Positions 14,647 to 33,992 of a DNA stretch of 64,000 bases are shown here, piece by piece. The position numbers and the translations under genes are program-made. Where the stretch lies: sequence record PQ724392.1; one strand, 5' to 3'. Every line of letters starts with the position of its first letter. Positions within the stretch are counted from its first letter, which is position 1. The notes below the pieces were generated by a model that saw only the letters and a program-made list of their open reading frames with translations, was not told the DNA's origin and made no database searches. The DNA is from a phage.

Positions 14647-16626
14647 ATGGCTTTATTATCCCCGGGCATTGAGCTCAAAGAAACAACGGTACAAAGCACT
14701 GTTGTTCGTAACGCGACGGGTCGTGCGGCGCTGGTTGGTAAATTCCAGTGGGGCCCAGCTTTCCAGGTAACTCAAATTACAAACGAAGTTGAACTTGTTG
14801 ATTTGTTTGGTGGTCCGAATAATGAAACAGCAGATTACTTTATGAGTGGGATGAACTTCCTGCAATATGGTAACGACCTCCGTACTGTACGTGTTGTTAA
14901 CCGTGACGAAGCTAAAAACGCATCCCCTATTGCTGGCAATATTGAAACTACCATCGTAACTGCTGGTACAAACTATGCTGTCGGTGATGTTATTCAGGTT
15001 AAACACAACCAGACTGTTGTTGAACCGGCTGGCCGTGTGACCAAGGTCGATGTTGATGGTAAAATTCAGGCAATCTTTATTCCTACCGATAAGATTATTG
15101 CATTTGCCAAAACTATTAACCAGTATCCTAATTTAGGTAGTGCATGGACTGCGGAAGTTACAACCACTTCTTCTGGCGTATCTGGTACCATCACCGTTGG
15201 GAAAATTGTTACCGATTCTGGAATTCTGTTGACTGAAGCAGAAAATAGTGAAGAAGCAATTACTTCTCTGGAATTCCAGGCATCATTAGCAAAATATGCA
15301 ATGCCAGGTGTTGTTGCTCTTTATCCAGGTGAAATCGGTTCGACTCTGGAAGTTGAAATCGTATCTAAAGCTGAATTTGAAAAAGGCGCAGCTGCAAATC
15401 TGAATATTTTCCCGGGCGGCGGAACGCGTGCTTCTGTGGCTCGTGCCGTGTTTAACTATGGCCCTCAGTCTGAAAACCAATATGCAATTATCGTTCGCCG
15501 CGATGGTGCAATCGTCGAAAACGTTGTTTTGTCTACCAAGCAGGGCGAAAAAGATGTTTACGGTAATAACATTTATCTGGATGACTACTTTGCAAAAGGT
15601 ACTTCCAACTACATCTATGCAACATCTCGCAACTGGCCTGTAGGCTTCAGTGGTATCATCAATCTGTCTGGTGGTATTTCTGCAAACGATAAGATTACCG
15701 CTGGTGATTTGATGCAAGGTTGGGACCTGTTTGCTGACCGTGAAGCACTGCATATTAACCTGCTTATCGCTGGTGCAGTAGCTGGTGAAGGTGATGCAAC
15801 CGCTTCCACTGTTCAGAAACACGTGGTTTCTATTGCTGACGAACGTCAGGATTGTCTGGCATTTATTTCCCCACCGAAAGGTCTGTTGGTTAACGTTCCT
15901 CTGACCCGTGCAGTGGATAACCTGATTGACTGGCGTACAGGTGCTGGCGCATTTGATACTGATAACATGAATATCAGCACGACTTATGCAGCGATTGATG
16001 GCAACTATAAATATCAGTATGATAAATATAATGACGTTAACCGTTGGGTTCCTCTGGCAGCTGATATGGCTGGTCTGTGTGCTCGTACTGATGATGTTTC
16101 TCAGCCTTGGATGTCTCCGGCTGGTTATAACCGCGGTCAGATTCTGAACGTTCTGAAATTGGCTGTTGAACCACGTCAGACCCAACGTGACCGCATGTAT
16201 CAAGAAGCTATCAACCCGGTTGTTGGTTTCGCAGGTGGTGATGGTTTTGTTCTGTATGGTGATAAGACTGCAACTAAAGTTCCATCTCCGATGGACCATA
16301 TTAACGTTCGTCGTCTTACGAATATGCTGAAGAAAAATATCGGTGATGCATCCAAATATAAACTGTTTGAGCTTAACGATAACTTCACTCGTGCATCATT
16401 CCGTATGGAAACTTCTCAATACTTGGATGGTATTCGTGCACTTGGTGGCATTTATGAAGGTCGTGTAGTTTGTGATACTACTAACAACACCCCGTCGGTC
16501 ATAGACCGAAATGAGTTTGTTGCTAGCATTTATTTTAAACCTGCGCGCAGCATCAACTACATCACTCTTAATTTCGTAGCCACTAGCACTGGTGCTGATT
16601 TTGATGAGCTGATTGGGCCACAATAA
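14647..16626 (+). CDS. 18: Tail sheath protein gp18
   Basis: 659 aa, same as T4 gp18; late promoter at 14610-14617. Confidence 0.9.
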   Translation: MALLSPGIELKETTVQSTVVRNATGRAALVGKFQWGPAFQVTQITNEVELVDLFGGPNNETADYFMSGMNFLQYGNDLRTVRVVNRDEAKNASPIAGNIETTIVTAGTNYAVGDVIQVKHNQTVVEPAGRVTKVDVDGKIQAIFIPTDKIIAFAKTINQYPNLGSAWTAEVTTTSSGVSGTITVGKIVTDSGILLTEAENSEEAITSLEFQASLAKYAMPGVVALYPGEIGSTLEVEIVSKAEFEKGAAANLNIFPGGGTRASVARAVFNYGPQSENQYAIIVRRDGAIVENVVLSTKQGEKDVYGNNIYLDDYFAKGTSNYIYATSRNWPVGFSGIINLSGGISANDKITAGDLMQGWDLFADREALHINLLIAGAVAGEGDATASTVQKHVVSIADERQDCLAFISPPKGLLVNVPLTRAVDNLIDWRTGAGAFDTDNMNISTTYAAIDGNYKYQYDKYNDVNRWVPLAADMAGLCARTDDVSQPWMSPAGYNRGQILNVLKLAVEPRQTQRDRMYQEAINPVVGFAGGDGFVLYGDKTATKVPSPMDHINVRRLTNMLKKNIGDASKYKLFELNDNFTRASFRMETSQYLDGIRALGGIYEGRVVCDTTNNTPSVIDRNEFVASIYFKPARSINYITLNFVATSTGADFDELIGPQ

Positions 16627-16770
16627 TTATCATCGCTTAGAATGAATTAATCAGTTAGAAACCGTAGAACCATTATACAGTGGTATAAATAAAAGCATAA
16701 TCGGTTCTACGGGCTCCTGTGGTTGATTCTGGGAAGCCATTATCTTGAGATGATGAATCATATTACCTAG

Positions 16771-16778
16771 TATAAATA
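16771..16778 (+). promoter_or_regulatory. T4-type late promoter for gp19
   Basis: Exact TATAAATA about 53 nt upstream of the gp19 ATG; a second TATAAATA lies at 16684-16691. Confidence 0.55.
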
Positions 16779-16830
16779 CATGCATCAGGGACGCGTTCGC
16801 GCGACCTGTGTCTATAAAGAGGATTCCTTA

Positions 16831-17322
16831 ATGGAGTTGACCGATATCACACGCGCTTTCGAATCCGGCGACTTTGCTCGCCCTAACCTGTTCGAAGTCG
16901 AAATCCCATTCCTGGGTAAAAACTTTGCTTTCCATTGTAAAGCAGCCCCGATGCCAGCAGGCATTGTAGAAAAAGTTCCTGTCGGTTACATGAACCGTAA
17001 AATCAACGTTGCGGGCGACCGTACATTTGATGACTGGACTATTACGATTTATAACGACGATGCTCATAAAGTTCGTCAAGCAATTGTTGATTGGCAAAAC
17101 CTGTGTCACGGTATGACTAACGAAATCACCGGTGCAGCTCCTGCTGATTATAAGAAAACCGCTACTGTCCGCCAGTTCCATCGTGATGGCAAGACCGTTA
17201 CGAAAGAAGTTGTTATTACCGGCATGTGGCCAACCAACGTTGGGGAAGTCCAGATGGATTGGGACAGTAACAACGAAATTGAAACGTTCGAAGCAACGTT
17301 CGCAATTGACTGGTGGGAATAA
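16831..17322 (+). CDS. 19: Tail tube protein gp19
   Basis: Start moved to the internal ATG at 16831 (AAAGAGGA Shine-Dalgarno), giving 163 aa, same as T4; sequence closely matches T4 gp19 (TRAFESGDFARPNLF...). Confidence 0.9.
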   Translation: MELTDITRAFESGDFARPNLFEVEIPFLGKNFAFHCKAAPMPAGIVEKVPVGYMNRKINVAGDRTFDDWTITIYNDDAHKVRQAIVDWQNLCHGMTNEITGAAPADYKKTATVRQFHRDGKTVTKEVVITGMWPTNVGEVQMDWDSNNEIETFEATFAIDWWE

Positions 17323-26736: not shown

Positions 26737-26833
26737 AATCTCTCACTTTTGATGTTATAAATATCATTATAAATTAGACCCACTATACTTTCTTTCTCTG
26801 AAAGGAATTAATAGTTGCAAAGGGTCTAGAACC

Positions 26834-26859
26834 ATTATACCGCATTTTTATTTGAAGCA
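26834..26859 (-). promoter_or_regulatory. MotA-type middle promoter upstream of rnlB
   Basis: On the - strand: TTTGCTTCA, 13 nt, TATAAT, then GGTTCTAGACCC, the same downstream block as the uvsY promoter. Confidence 0.5.
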
Positions 26860-28640: not shown

Positions 28641-29306
28641 TTATTTTAAAGTGACAAAAGATGAGTTACGAGTTTCTCGTACTAGAACAGACCCATTACG
28701 ATTGATGTAATAAATCAAACTGAATAGGGTTTGATGCGCGGTGGGATGTGGGAAAGCAGTTGGACGTTCTTTCCAATCCGGAGTCTCGGCAATCCACTGA
28801 TAAATCCACCATGGAACAGTACAGAATCCAGGGTTCTTGCCAATAAGCATAAGATTTGGACTAAAGTTTTTTGGTAGAGCAAATACAGGTTTTTCAGATT
28901 CGATAACCTTAGCAACAGCTGCTTCGAACTTTTCTTCGATAAAAGGAACATCTTCTTCGACCAAAACAACTGGTTCTTCGATTTCAACAACTTCAACCTT
29001 TGCTTCGGTTGGAGCATCAAATAAGAGTTTAGCTTCTTCTTTAGCTGACTCATCGCCATCAAATTTAGCACCTGACAATTCATCGTCGGCATCGATAAGG
29101 TCAGTGATGCTCAGGCCTTCATTATCATCAGGCATAGGCATGTCAGCAAATGCTTTAAGTCCTGCTTCCAGGTCAGCCAACATATTATCAAAGGTTTTTG
29201 TTTTCTTAACATCAACGCCAAGTGATGCTGCGTATTCGGCTAATTTTTCTTTGGCTTCTTTTTTCTCGAGGACACGAATTTCCTCAATGTAGTTCTTGTC
29301 AATCAT
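28641..29306 (-). CDS. inh: Inhibitor of prohead protease (Inh)
   Basis: 221 aa (T4 226 aa); position between hoc and uvsW; acidic central region. Confidence 0.6.
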   Translation of the reverse strand: MIDKNYIEEIRVLEKKEAKEKLAEYAASLGVDVKKTKTFDNMLADLEAGLKAFADMPMPDDNEGLSITDLIDADDELSGAKFDGDESAKEEAKLLFDAPTEAKVEVVEIEEPVVLVEEDVPFIEEKFEAAVAKVIESEKPVFALPKNFSPNLMLIGKNPGFCTVPWWIYQWIAETPDWKERPTAFPHPTAHQTLFSLIYYINRNGSVLVRETRNSSFVTLK

Positions 29307-29324
29307 GATGAACCTCGGTTAGTG

Positions 29325-29332
29325 TATAAATA
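29325..29332 (+). promoter_or_regulatory. T4-type late promoter for uvsW
   Basis: Exact TATAAATA 29 nt upstream of the uvsW ATG at 29361. Confidence 0.6.
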
Positions 29333-29360
29333 TAGATATATTTATTACCTTGGAATCATC

Positions 29361-30860
29361 ATGGATATTAAAATCAACTTTCTAAATTTTAGTCACGTGC
29401 ATGTTGAATGTGAAGATGGAATCTTCTACGAACTCCGTGATTACTTCAGCTTCGAAGCTGAAAACTATCGCTTCAATCCAAAATTCAAGCAGGGAGTTTG
29501 GGACGGACGAATCCGCCTCCTGGATTACAATCGTAAATTACCATACGGTTTGGTTAATCAAATTAAAAAGTTCGCTGACCAGTTTGGCTATTCATTCTGG
29601 ATTGACCCACAAATCACAGAGAAAGAAGAAATCTCTCGCGAAGAATTCGACAAATGGGTCGAGTCAAAAGAAATCTATTCAGGCAATACTAAGATAACGC
29701 CCCATTGGTATCAATCTGACGCCGTATATGATGGTCTGGTCAACAGAAGAAAGATTCTGAACTTACCTACGTCTGCAGGTAAAAGTCTCATCCAGGCGCT
29801 TCTGGCGCGATATTATCTCGAGAACTATGAAGGCAAGGTGCTTATCCTTGTTCCTACAACCGCGCTTGTTGACCAGATGATTAATGACTTTGTTGATTAT
29901 CGTCTGTTCCCTCGTGAAGCTTGTCTGGGTATTCGTTCCGGGACTAAACGTGATTCTGATGCGATGATTTATGTATCGACTTATCAGACGGCTGTAAAAC
30001 AACCTAAAGAATGGTTTGAACAGTTTGGCCAGTTTATGAATGACGAATGTCACATGGCTACAGGTAAATCAATTTCGACGGTTATCGAAGGCCTTACGAA
30101 TTGCATGTTTAAATTTGGTTTGTCAGGCTCACTCCGTGACGGCAAAGCCAACCTTATGCAATATATGGGTCTGTTTGGTGATATCTTTAAACCGGTATCA
30201 ACATCTAAATTGATGGAAGATGGTCAGGTCACTGACCTTAAAATAAATAGTATTTTCCTTCGTTACCCTGATGAATTTACCGTTAAAATGAAAGGTAAAA
30301 CTTATCAGGATGAAATTAAGGTAATTACAAAAGCTACACGCCGAAATAAATGGGTAACAAATCTTGCTCTCAAGCTTGCTAAAAAAGATGAAAACGTCTT
30401 TTTGATGTTTAAGAATATCGAGCACGGTAAATCGATGTTTGAAATGCTTAAGGAAGCTGGTCATGAGAAAGTGTATTATGTTTCCGGGGAAGTTGATACC
30501 GAAACTCGTAATGCATTAAAGGTCATGGCAGAGAATGGAAAAGGAATTATTGTTGTAGCTTCATACGGTGTATTCTCGACGGGTATTTCCGTTAAAAACC
30601 TCCATCATATTATTTTCGCTCACCCGGTCAAATCAAAGGTAATTGTACTCCAGACAATTGGCCGCGTGCTTCGAAAACATGAATCCAAATCGACCGCAAA
30701 CGTGTGGGACATCGTGGATGATATGGGGGTCAAACCCAAATCAGCAAACGCTAAAAAGAAATATGTTCATATTAACTTTGCGCTTAAACATGCACTAGAA
30801 CGTATTCAACGGTATGCAGACGAAAAATTCAATTATGTAATTAAACAGGTGGAAATATAA
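29361..30860 (+). CDS. uvsW: UvsW DNA helicase (SF2, recombination/repair)
   Basis: Near-collinear match to T4 UvsW (MDIK..F..FSHV...E...F.ELRD.FSFEA..YRFNP...G.WDGRIRLLDYNR); the track ORF begins at GTG 29322, so the start is moved to the ATG at 29361; late promoter at 29325-29332. Confidence 0.9.
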   Translation: MDIKINFLNFSHVHVECEDGIFYELRDYFSFEAENYRFNPKFKQGVWDGRIRLLDYNRKLPYGLVNQIKKFADQFGYSFWIDPQITEKEEISREEFDKWVESKEIYSGNTKITPHWYQSDAVYDGLVNRRKILNLPTSAGKSLIQALLARYYLENYEGKVLILVPTTALVDQMINDFVDYRLFPREACLGIRSGTKRDSDAMIYVSTYQTAVKQPKEWFEQFGQFMNDECHMATGKSISTVIEGLTNCMFKFGLSGSLRDGKANLMQYMGLFGDIFKPVSTSKLMEDGQVTDLKINSIFLRYPDEFTVKMKGKTYQDEIKVITKATRRNKWVTNLALKLAKKDENVFLMFKNIEHGKSMFEMLKEAGHEKVYYVSGEVDTETRNALKVMAENGKGIIVVASYGVFSTGISVKNLHHIIFAHPVKSKVIVLQTIGRVLRKHESKSTANVWDIVDDMGVKPKSANAKKKYVHINFALKHALERIQRYADEKFNYVIKQVEI

Positions 30861-32119: not shown

Positions 32120-32147
32120 AATGTATCCAATGTAAGGGTCTAGAACC

Positions 32148-32172
32148 ATTATACAGCCATAAAATTAAAGCA
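32148..32172 (-). promoter_or_regulatory. MotA-dependent middle promoter for uvsY
   Basis: On the - strand: TAATGCTTTAA (MotA box TGCTTTA), 12 nt, TATAAT, then conserved GGTTCTAGACCC; about 30 nt upstream of the uvsY ATG. Confidence 0.6.
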
Positions 32173-32562: not shown

Positions 32563-33186
32563 TTACATAAACTTAAAGAATTCTTTAAGCCCCTTAATTA
32601 CATGGACAGAATGCGCTCCGCACTCGCAAGAGATAGGAATAGCCATTTGGACCTGTGGCTTGAGAAGTTCTTCGGTTAGTGCATTTATATCATCGAGGGT
32701 AATTGCGTTGTATAGGTCCTCGATTTCGGCTTCATTTAAGTCATCAACAACGATGCGCTCGCCACCTTCCGTGATAATATATTCGATACAACAAGCAATC
32801 ATTTTACCTTTATCGCCGTCTTCAAACAACCCAGGATAACGGAATTTAATTTTAAATGCCCCGAAATCACGAATAACTTCAGACTCATCCACGATGCTTG
32901 CACGACTTATAGTCACAGGAATATCTTGTTCCTTTCCACATTCGCATACCCATGTATGTTCGACATTAACAACCCCAAGACTATTTGCCCAGAGATTAAT
33001 AAGAAGCAGCTCGGCTTCCTGTTTGTTTAACCCTTTAGCATCAGTGCATTTATTAAGCAGTTCAATTATTGCAGGTTCCATACGCTTTTCTAATTTTGCC
33101 TGAAGCAAATCTTTGTATTCGCGCAATGTAAAAGCCCTACAATTTATAGTTTTATTTTTAATTTGGACAATAAATTCATAAGTCAT
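32563..33186 (-). CDS. 26: Baseplate hub subunit gp26
   Basis: Track ORF begins at TTG 33219; the internal ATG at 33186 has an AAGGAG Shine-Dalgarno and gives 207 aa (T4 gp26 208 aa). Confidence 0.75.
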   Translation of the reverse strand: MTYEFIVQIKNKTINCRAFTLREYKDLLQAKLEKRMEPAIIELLNKCTDAKGLNKQEAELLLINLWANSLGVVNVEHTWVCECGKEQDIPVTISRASIVDESEVIRDFGAFKIKFRYPGLFEDGDKGKMIACCIEYIITEGGERIVVDDLNEAEIEDLYNAITLDDINALTEELLKPQVQMAIPISCECGAHSVHVIKGLKEFFKFM

Positions 33187-33203
33187 AATTTGCTCCTTTA
33201 CTG

Positions 33204-33215
33204 TATTTATAAATA
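33204..33215. promoter_or_regulatory. Bidirectional palindromic late promoter (TATTTATAAATA) serving divergent gp26 and gp51
   Basis: TATAAATA reads on the + strand (33208-33215, 25 nt upstream of gp51) and on the - strand (33204-33211, 18 nt upstream of the gp26 ATG at 33186). Confidence 0.55.
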
Positions 33216-33239
33216 TCAATAAAGATAAAAGGGGATTCT

Positions 33240-33992
33240 ATGGCCAATATCGTAAGATGTGAAATGCCAGACGGAGTTCATCGTTTCAAACCGTTTACAG
33301 TCGCTGATTACCGTGATTTACTGCTTGTGCGAAACGACATGAACAACAAACCCGTCGAAGAACAAAAACAATTATTAGACGAACTGTTGGAAGATTATTT
33401 TGGAGAGTATCCAAAAGCATGGAGGCCTTACATATTCCTGAAGGTATTCACTTCCTCTATCGGTAAGACAAAAGTCCCGGTAGCGTTCGAATGTCAAAAA
33501 TGTAAAAAGACAAAGCAGACTTTGTTTAATATGAGCCAAGGTCCATTGACAAATCCAACAATGGAAACCGCGGGGATAAAAATACAATTTAAGTTCCCTG
33601 AAGTAGAATATAAAGATAAGTCGGAGCTTGTTCTAAACACCATCCAGACTGTCGAAGACTCAGAACAAAAATACAATTGGGAAGACCTTCCTGAAGAAAC
33701 GAAGATGCAGGTTATTGATGCAATTGATATAGAGAGTCTCGAAGAGCTCCTTAAGAAAATGCATTCAGTTTATATTCCATTTACATATGGTTGCTGCGAA
33801 AAACACAAAACCGAATATACAGACTTGATTGATGTCTTTAAGCTTATCCTTAACCCGGATGAAGTCTTTGTATTTTATCAAATTAACCACTTACTGGTAA
33901 AGAATCAATATACACTGGATAGCATCATGCACATGATTCCTATCGAACGAGGTATTGCTTTATCGTTAGTTGAGAAGGACTTGAAGAAATGA
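33240..33992 (+). CDS. 51: Baseplate hub assembly catalyst gp51
   Basis: 250 aa (T4 249 aa); divergent from gp26 with a shared palindromic late promoter; ATGA overlap with gp27. Confidence 0.75.

Follow-up and report, generated by a model that had tools for sequence, protein, structure and literature searches.

The sample analysed was a 64,000-nt stretch of phage DNA from record PQ724392.1 (hereafter the window), and the analysis was computational throughout. The plus strand of the window encodes the T4-type terminase (gp17), tail sheath (gp18), tail tube (gp19) and portal (gp20), and megablast placed the window in the genus Gaprivervirus (VR7, VR20, VR25, SP18 and others) with identity up to 99.8%. 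Between the tail sheath gene and the tail tube gene lies a structured spacer which matches Gaprivervirus only, at one place per record. The features of this spacer, its neighbouring genes and the gene that is inserted beside it in some relatives are presented in Table 1.

Table 1. Features of the gene 18-gene 19 region; positions are those of the window, except for gene 19.1, which is given by locus in relatives
Feature	Position	Strand	Basis or remark
Gene 18 (tail sheath)	14647..16626	+	Open reading frame and annotation of relatives; stop codon directly 5' of the structured spacer
Composite RNA stem-loop	16627..16756	+	Outer helices 16627-16654 with 16719-16756; inverted repeat forms the apex (MFE folds)
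5' arm CCGTAGAACC	16662..16671	+	Minus strand reads GGTTCTACGG, the discriminator/start region of the putative middle promoter
Putative MotA-dependent middle promoter	16665..16700	-	Motif match, consensus of PMC2988021
Hypervariable 6-nt gap	16678..16683		Between the minus-strand -10 and the plus-strand TATAAATA
Distal gene 19 late promoter TATAAATA	16684..16691	+	Exact consensus; in the hairpin loop
3' arm GGTTCTACGG	16703..16712	+	Outside every promoter motif; about +7 to +16 of the predicted distal late transcript
Proximal gene 19 late promoter	16771..16778	+	Kept in all aligned window-type and VR7-type relatives
Second hairpin GCA.CAGG..CGCG/CGCG.CCUGUGU	16782..16811	+	Leader of the proximal late transcript, 5' of the gene 19 Shine-Dalgarno
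Gene 19 (tail tube)	16832..17322	+	Open reading frame and annotation of relatives
Gene 19.1 (relatives)	L001 1795-2400 (VR7); L003 2266-2916 (DCP80); L002 2934-3617 (VR26); L038 664-1206 (UP19)		

The perfect 10-bp inverted repeat which had been predicted between gp18 and gp19 was confirmed in both its coordinates and its complementarity: the two arms are 100% complementary and lie 31 nt apart (41 bp from centre to centre), and the stem grows inward by five A-U pairs, ATTAT at 16672-16676 with ATAAT at 16697-16701, with C16702 bulged. Folded as RNA, the inverted repeat gave the expected hairpin, with an energy of -19.5 kcal/mol (z = -4.6). Five perfect 10-nt inverted repeats with a loop of 3-45 nt were found in the window in comparison to 4.15 expected from dinucleotide shuffles, so that a 10-nt repeat is by itself statistically unremarkable; the reality of the element is supported by conservation and context, and not by the repeat per se. 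This chance-level frequency was absent from the original prediction, as was the gene 19.1 insertion polymorphism which adjoins the element.

The loop of the hairpin contains the plus-strand late promoter TATAAATA that had been predicted there. In late promoters, TATAAATA is expected at about -13 to -6, and when the T4 late-promoter geometry was used to position the start, the distal late transcript would begin near A16697 and would thus be without the 5' arm. The site lies on the late strand upstream of the late gene 19, at a distance of 148 nt from its ATG, and by these features would be a promoter of the T4 late type. In the window as a whole TATAAATA is enriched, with 18 sites in comparison to 4.3 expected, 15 of which are on the plus strand. 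The proximal late promoter is absent from VR26, in which a variant of gene 19.1 sits at that position. The leader hairpin between the proximal promoter and gene 19 is conserved in the alignment of relatives. In the sister genus Dhakavirus a different hairpin, UUCCUGG...CCAGGAA, was noted at the gene 19 leader position (L038, about 1375-1400), the loop of which differs among isolates.

Structures around TATAAATA were also seen elsewhere in the window. At 29290-29365 on the plus strand, upstream of a uvsW-like open reading frame, a hairpin CAUGAUGA...UCAUCAUG encloses TATAAATA (29325-29332) and its 3' arm covers the AUG, so that read-through RNA would mask the start codon and RNA from the late promoter would not. 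At 33204-33215 the palindromic TATTTATAAATA forms back-to-back copies of TATAAATA on both strands between the divergent genes 32563-33219 (minus) and 33240-33992 (plus), and on the plus strand CUCCUUU at this site pairs with a downstream AAAGGGG Shine-Dalgarno region. A census of late promoters spanned by base pairs had no discriminating power, random positions reaching at least 8 spanning pairs 48% of the time.

Middle promoters carry a MotA box centred near -30, and on the minus strand the same loop was found to carry exactly the arrangement that had been predicted, including its spacing: TGCTTTT (16697 to 16691), 13 nt, a perfect TATAAT (16677 to 16672), the discriminator GGTTCT and then A, the sequence immediately past TATAAT reading GGTTCTACGG. 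A MotA-dependent promoter is defined by the box (a/t)(a/t)(a/t)TGCTTtA, followed after 12+/-1 bp by TAtaaT (PMC2988021). The box at this locus, TTATGCTTTT (16700 to 16691), matches the consensus at 9 of its 10 positions, its final base being T where the consensus has A, and the 13 bp which separate it from TATAAT fall within the defined range, so that by its sequence the putative promoter has every feature of the class. The T4 promoter PuvsY, with a mapped start at 115371 (Table 1 of PMC2988021), reads TGCTTCA-12 nt-GGTATAATGAATCT-A, and this start is the A seven bases past the -10; from the stretch TATAATGAATCT-A of PuvsY we infer by homology that the +1 of the putative middle promoter is A16665. 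Both motA and asiA are annotated in VR7, which belongs to the same genus as the window, the two genes lying outside the window itself. A strict form of the middle-promoter motif matched four times in the 64 kb, always on the minus (early/middle) strand, in comparison to 0.35 matches expected, which places it beyond chance; these four matches are the element at 16665-16700, the regions upstream of rnlB and of uvsY, and one site in the early region.

In its MotA box, its 13-bp spacer, its perfect TATAAT and its location on the early/middle strand the element resembles the T4 MotA/AsiA middle promoters PuvsY and PrnlB, both of which have been experimentally identified (PMC2988021). It differs from T4 middle promoters in that it lies antisense within the late structural cluster with no gene downstream of it, overlaps a late promoter of the opposite strand and is bracketed by an inverted repeat. 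On the minus strand downstream of it there is neither a gene nor a clear terminator, so that a minus-strand product would be without an evident job. A 44-aa minus-strand open reading frame at 16651-16785 was judged spurious, and reading of the VR7 sequence showed it to be interrupted after 12 codons in the VR7-type; it is annotated as 'hypothetical protein' in several GenBank relatives (among them pEC-M719-6WT.2, UPEC07 and vB_YenM_P8). A 75-aa minus-strand open reading frame at 16396-16623, antisense within gene 18, was also judged spurious.

The likeness to the uvsY and rnlB middle promoters near the -10, which had also been predicted, amounts to 14 identical nucleotides. This block, GTATAATGGTTCTA, recurs on the minus strand at 26824-26839, upstream of rnlB, and at 32138-32153, upstream of uvsY, so that, within one genome, the element and the homologues of the uvsY and rnlB promoters have the same discriminator and start block. 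For a given 14-mer, about 0.0005 extra occurrences in 128 kb would be expected by chance. The spacers from MotA box to -10 are unrelated among the three promoters, and the likeness is thus restricted to functional parts. When IMG/VR was scanned for TGCTT-N12-15-GTATAATGGTTCTA, each Gaprivervirus genome gave these three sites and no others, and the block was also seen behind consensus MotA boxes in other, unrelated T4-like contigs; for this reason GTATAATGGTTCTA looks like a favoured -10/discriminator/start module and not like a mobile copy. The suggestion that the element is a displaced or mobile promoter copy was not supported, since it occurs once per genome, always at the gp18-gp19 locus and in two genera, and the spacers of the other promoters differ; no second copy in any genome was found when the window, the phage collection, IMG/VR and JGI metagenomes were searched with exact and degenerate patterns. 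A genuinely repeated promoter module, unlike the gp18-gp19 element, appears to be present in the IMG/VR contig 2974608788_000001 (167,922 bp), which carries two nearly identical middle-promoter cassettes of about 60 nt, TGCTTTA..GGTATAATGGTTCTAccggttcaccgctctaattatatct (L021 3548-3581 and L022 8247-8280).

To describe conservation, 17 window-type sequences were used, including one metagenome contig, and the module was taken as the 53 nt at 16660-16712. The gp18-gp19 spacer was compared among relatives as originally proposed, and this module was found to be nearly invariant between diverging flanks in every Gaprivervirus genome sampled, with VR26 lacking the right arm. Variable columns numbered 2 of 53 in the module in comparison to 11 of 33 in the upstream flank, 8 of 58 in the downstream flank and 23 of 100 in the last 100 nt of gene 18 (Fisher p 0.006 for the module against the two flanks, 19/91, and p 0.002 against the end of gene 18). 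The two variable sites are 16683, which is G, T, C or A among window-type phages, and C16670T in the metagenome contig, which turns a C-G pair into U.G. The deeper lineages show further module changes only at 16679 (VR26), at 16680 (VR7-type) and as a 2-nt indel within 16698-16702. C16670T aside, the variation is restricted to the 6-nt gap that separates the minus-strand -10 from TATAAATA and to the stretch from the MotA box to the right arm; it spares the -10, the MotA box, TATAAATA and the arms, and this is the sequence pattern that would be expected if all of these were constrained. The 5' arm is unchanged in all sampled phage genomes which have both arms, the metagenome contig with C16670T being the exception, and the 3' arm is invariant across window-type and VR7-type genomes even though the adjacent 16713-16752 diverges or is unalignable. 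The left arm would be under a double constraint, from the discriminator/start region of the promoter and from the stem, and the right arm would be constrained by pairing alone. Whether a phage carries gene 19.1 makes no difference to how well the module is conserved.

The 3' arm is missing from both VR26 and Dhakavirus. VR26 shares just 36 nt with the window, CCATTATACCGTGTTATAAATAAAAGCATAAGG, and keeps in them the MotA box, the spacing, and the -10 followed by GGGTCTA. Dhakavirus has AACCTAAAACCATTATACCATG at the same locus, where the minus strand reads GGTATAATGGTTTTA and a degenerate MotA box, CGCTGTA, lies 13 nt upstream of it; there is no plus-strand TATAAATA at this position and no 10-bp right arm. 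ATTATA, the complement of the -10, together with CC is unchanged even in VR26 and Dhakavirus, the hairpin partners of which differ, so that the -10/discriminator of the minus strand is the most deeply conserved piece of the element. Judging from these sequences, neither the late promoter nor the Gaprivervirus stem would explain the depth of this conservation.

These comparisons bear on whether the minus-strand motif is active at all. It could be that the core is kept for the sake of the late promoter and the RNA structure, and that the promoter match is fortuitous or a silent relic, as may be suggested by the lack of a coding sequence downstream on the minus strand and by the degenerate MotA box of Dhakavirus. 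In T4, moreover, no middle promoter has been identified between 75,393 and 109,763, the late structural cluster, and some good-looking T4 middle-promoter sequences are inactive (PMC2988021 for both). Against this, the late promoter needs only TATAAATA, and ATTATA with CC is present in Dhakavirus, which has no TATAAATA there; 14 nt are identical to two homologues of mapped T4 promoters, which is hardly to be expected by chance; and all four strict matches fall on the early/middle strand. We consider an inactive motif unlikely on balance. Of the original suggestion of an antisense-RNA promoter, the sequence features, the presence of motA and asiA in VR7 and the retention of the -10 and discriminator in VR26 and Dhakavirus are established, and the promoter activity itself is predicted from them.

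The flanks form the outer helices of a larger RNA stem-loop, with the inverted repeat at its apex. In the window, UUAUCAUC, CUUAGAA and GAAUUAAUCAG pair with CUGUGGUUGAUUC, UUCUGGG and GAUGAUGA, and the duplex between the two flanks has an energy of -20.1 kcal/mol in comparison to a shuffle mean of -10.4 (p 0.002). In the VR7-type, despite unalignable flanks, the same apex is enclosed by pairing between CAGUAAAUGUA.AUU and AAU.UACAUUUAUUG (fold z = -4.2), and Dhakavirus builds a comparable 140-nt structure from other sequences (-39 kcal/mol, z = -3.9), so that in three lineages different flanks form a stem-loop of 130-150 nt directly past the stop of gene 18 or of the inserted gene 19.1. The cognate flank duplexes reached -20.1, -15.5 and -13.4 kcal/mol (p 0.002, 0.022 and 0.024; shuffle means -7.6 to -10.4), in comparison to only -7 to -10 kcal/mol for cross-type combinations of flanks. 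In the alignment of the 17 sequences 99.2% of cells are paired, and where the stem has a substitution a pair is mostly retained through G.U; in the covariation analysis of these sequences, among which there is little variation, no measure exceeded the shuffles (222-241 of 500 reached the observed value). The 10-bp arms never vary together and show no compensatory change. In the window-type the outer helices contain five G.U pairs, which favour the plus-strand RNA, and by folding energy the plus strand is favoured in most window-type spacers, with the minus strand as good or better in the VR7-type and VR25 spacers. The original suggestion of an RNA stability element for the gp18 message is thus plausible in that the larger stem-loop is kept in three lineages, but covariation added no significant support to it. 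A scan of 16300-17100 on both strands against Rfam gave no match up to E = 1.

The spacer of T4 between genes 18 and 19 provides a useful comparison, as there, too, two copies of TATAAATA precede gene 19 and a stem-loop follows directly on the gene 18 stop. The difference is that T4 has two small hairpins, each before its TATAAATA, whereas here the distal promoter is inside the loop and the stem-loop, at about 130 nt, is far longer. In VR26 the gene 18 stop is likewise followed by a small hairpin and then by TATAAATA. Taken with the T4 hairpins, this makes a stem-loop past gene 18, followed by late promoters, a shared theme. An intrinsic terminator, which is a compact G+C-rich hairpin with a U tract directly after it, was rejected as an identity for the repeat: the terminator scan did not call it, its loop is 20-31 nt, and its tail is GCUCCUGUGG. 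A terminator-like hairpin at 16707-16722 is weak, uses part of the 3' arm and is not conserved in VR7-type phages.

With the flanks in view, the simplest reading of the repeat can be weighed, namely that the promoters alone matter and that the 10-bp repeat arose neutrally alongside them, for example through a small palindromic duplication of the discriminator, and has no role as a hairpin. Its chance-level frequency, the lack of compensatory change between the arms and the retention of the promoter core without the right arm in VR26 and Dhakavirus all agree with this reading. It does not, however, account for a right arm which lies outside the promoter motifs and yet is invariant in the window-type and VR7-type, where the next 1-40 nt diverge or are replaced, nor for the pairing around the apex that is seen with the flanks of Dhakavirus and with those of two types that cannot be aligned, and the only arm substitution found, C16670T, retains a U.G pair. 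A neutral by-product appears rather improbable to us.

The other variable part of this region is gene 19.1. It lies between the gene 18 stop and the module in VR7, RZ, DK-13, TH57 and DCP80, corresponding to an insertion point at about 16627-16640 in the window, and an insertion lies downstream of the module in VR26 and in the Dhakavirus Bp7; Dhakavirus likewise shows a pattern of presence and absence of gene 19.1. From these sequences the module appears as a fixed landmark with alternative insertion sites on either side. The product, gp19.1, has about 200-230 aa and belongs to phrog_5104 (unknown function) with a marginal match to endonuclease VII (PHROGs); a Pfam search with gp19.1 gave no significant family, and by eye it has a zinc-finger-like CxxC pair and an HNH-like D-H-K...N...N stretch. 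Its homologues were found in 236 phage records, distributed sporadically across many T4-like genera, and in the VR7-type a GCGCGTAT/ATACGCGC hairpin encloses a late promoter that belongs to gene 19.1 itself. On this sequence evidence the gene, which is unannotated, behaves like a free-standing gene of the homing-endonuclease type.

A late promoter within a hairpin is a known form of control in T4, documented for homing endonucleases and late genes, among them I-TevI, segB, e and soc (PMC2988022). The module is like this class, which also includes I-TevII, mobE of Aeh1 and genes 25 and 26, in that read-through transcripts would fold and late transcripts would be without the 5' arm, and one may ask whether it is a relic or variant of such a hairpin, sequestering a ribosome-binding site and either left by or serving a mobile gene. 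The gene 19.1 insertion hot spot on either side of the module would fit this origin, as would VR26, where the core promoter precedes the 19.1 variant and the start codon of the variant pairs with upstream sequence in the fold, and classical examples are present elsewhere in the window. In contrast to the class, the 3' arm covers neither a ribosome-binding site nor a start codon and no open reading frame follows it, with no Shine-Dalgarno, start codon or open reading frame at 16703-16730, so that nothing would obviously be unmasked; the ribosome site of gene 19 (about 16820) lies some 110 nt past the 3' arm and is unpaired with the arms, and conservation of the module does not depend on the presence of 19.1. 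Such a relic is in our view distinctly unlikely.

As presence/absence polymorphisms adjoin the element precisely on either side, it might also be taken for a mobile or recombinogenic cassette, or for a DNA palindrome that a protein, for instance the 19.1 nuclease, would bind or cut. The PeSL/PmSL cassettes of T4-like phages similarly combine a stem-loop with a promoter, which in PmSL uses a Mot box, and lie at the edges of indels; they are defined by repeated copies in which the stem-loop is just upstream of the promoter and a Shine-Dalgarno and start codon lie downstream (PMC4122927). The element, by comparison, is present in a single copy per genome, always at the gp18-gp19 locus in a conserved structural region, its stem surrounds the promoter and does not precede it, and no Shine-Dalgarno or start codon comes after it, so that under the definition only the indel association is in common and this class was rejected. 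The arms are 41 bp apart from centre to centre, and the G.U pairs of the outer helices fit poorly with a DNA cruciform, which leaves the cassette and the palindrome very improbable.

The element was also considered as a possible oriF/oriG-type origin, in which, as in T4, an untranslated middle transcript forming an R-loop would serve as leading-strand primer for replication. The oriG promoter P34i, which by its name we take to be internal to late gene 34, would be a parallel to a middle promoter within late genes, and the -10/start block is common with the homologue of the uvsY (oriF) promoter, with a transcript that would be non-coding here also. P34i is listed in Table 1 of PMC2988021, and origins of this kind are defined by an A+T-rich DNA unwinding element directly downstream of the middle promoter (PMC3016281). 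The 50 bp downstream of the predicted start are 64% A+T and, with regard to melting ease, rank at the 82nd percentile for the window, and so are not notably easy to unwind, in comparison to the 97-98th percentile for the uvsY homologue, with T4 oriF comparable to uvsY; the rnlB promoter was at the 82nd percentile at offset 0 and reached the 99th when the offset from its start was 10-30 bp. The duplex-stability test was thus not supportive, although the criterion is a weak one because heterologous unwinding elements can substitute, and an oriF-type origin is unconvincing and scarcely probable.

The motifs, their conservation pattern and, in three lineages, the structural potential are observed, and the explanation which we put first, with about an even chance of being correct, is that the element is the apex of an RNA stem-loop of about 130 nt with two opposed, overlapping promoters of different timing in its loop. 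At late times, transcripts reading through gene 18 would carry both arms and fold into the long stem-loop, which begins directly past the stop of gene 18 or, in relatives, of the inserted gene 19.1, and which may act as a 3'-end barrier or processing structure that gives the messages of genes 18 and 19 separate fates. Late RNA polymerase would also start at the TATAAATA in the loop, near A16697, and gene 19 transcripts from this promoter would lack the 5' arm and could not fold into the structure. At middle times, the sigma-70 polymerase modified by AsiA and MotA is predicted to act on the minus-strand promoter, and RNA starting at A16665 would run antisense into the end of gene 18 or, in phages that carry it, into gene 19.1. 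In this scheme we are predicting where transcription starts, that both promoters are active and what the stem-loop does.

A further reading, which we hold to be quite unlikely, is that the minus-strand promoter is active in two genera and that its anti-late RNA has a real job, either as an oriG-like primer or through pairing with the 5' half of the gene 18 stem-loop. T4 transcription is a textbook system, and antisense 'anti-late' RNA of T4 was reportedly described decades ago, with source and purpose unclear; a search of the available literature for anti-late RNA or antisense transcripts of the T4 late region found nothing usable. If the reading is true, antisense pairing could time or process the messages for the tail sheath, the tail tube or the 19.1 nuclease, and under the pairing option the inverted repeat would link an antisense RNA made at middle times with an mRNA structure formed at late times.

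In general, the parts of the element are of known kinds, and it is their overlapping arrangement, together with a putative antisense middle promoter within a late-gene block, that is unusual; of all its parts, this promoter is of the greatest interest and lends itself best to testing. The location of the module beside the 19.1 hot spot bears on how mobile genes are fitted into essential operons. If the promoter is inactive, the region would be an ordinary structured late intergenic spacer; as it stands, the conserved, backward-facing middle promoter motif in the sheath/tube spacer offers a concrete site at which antisense control or origin function may be sought.
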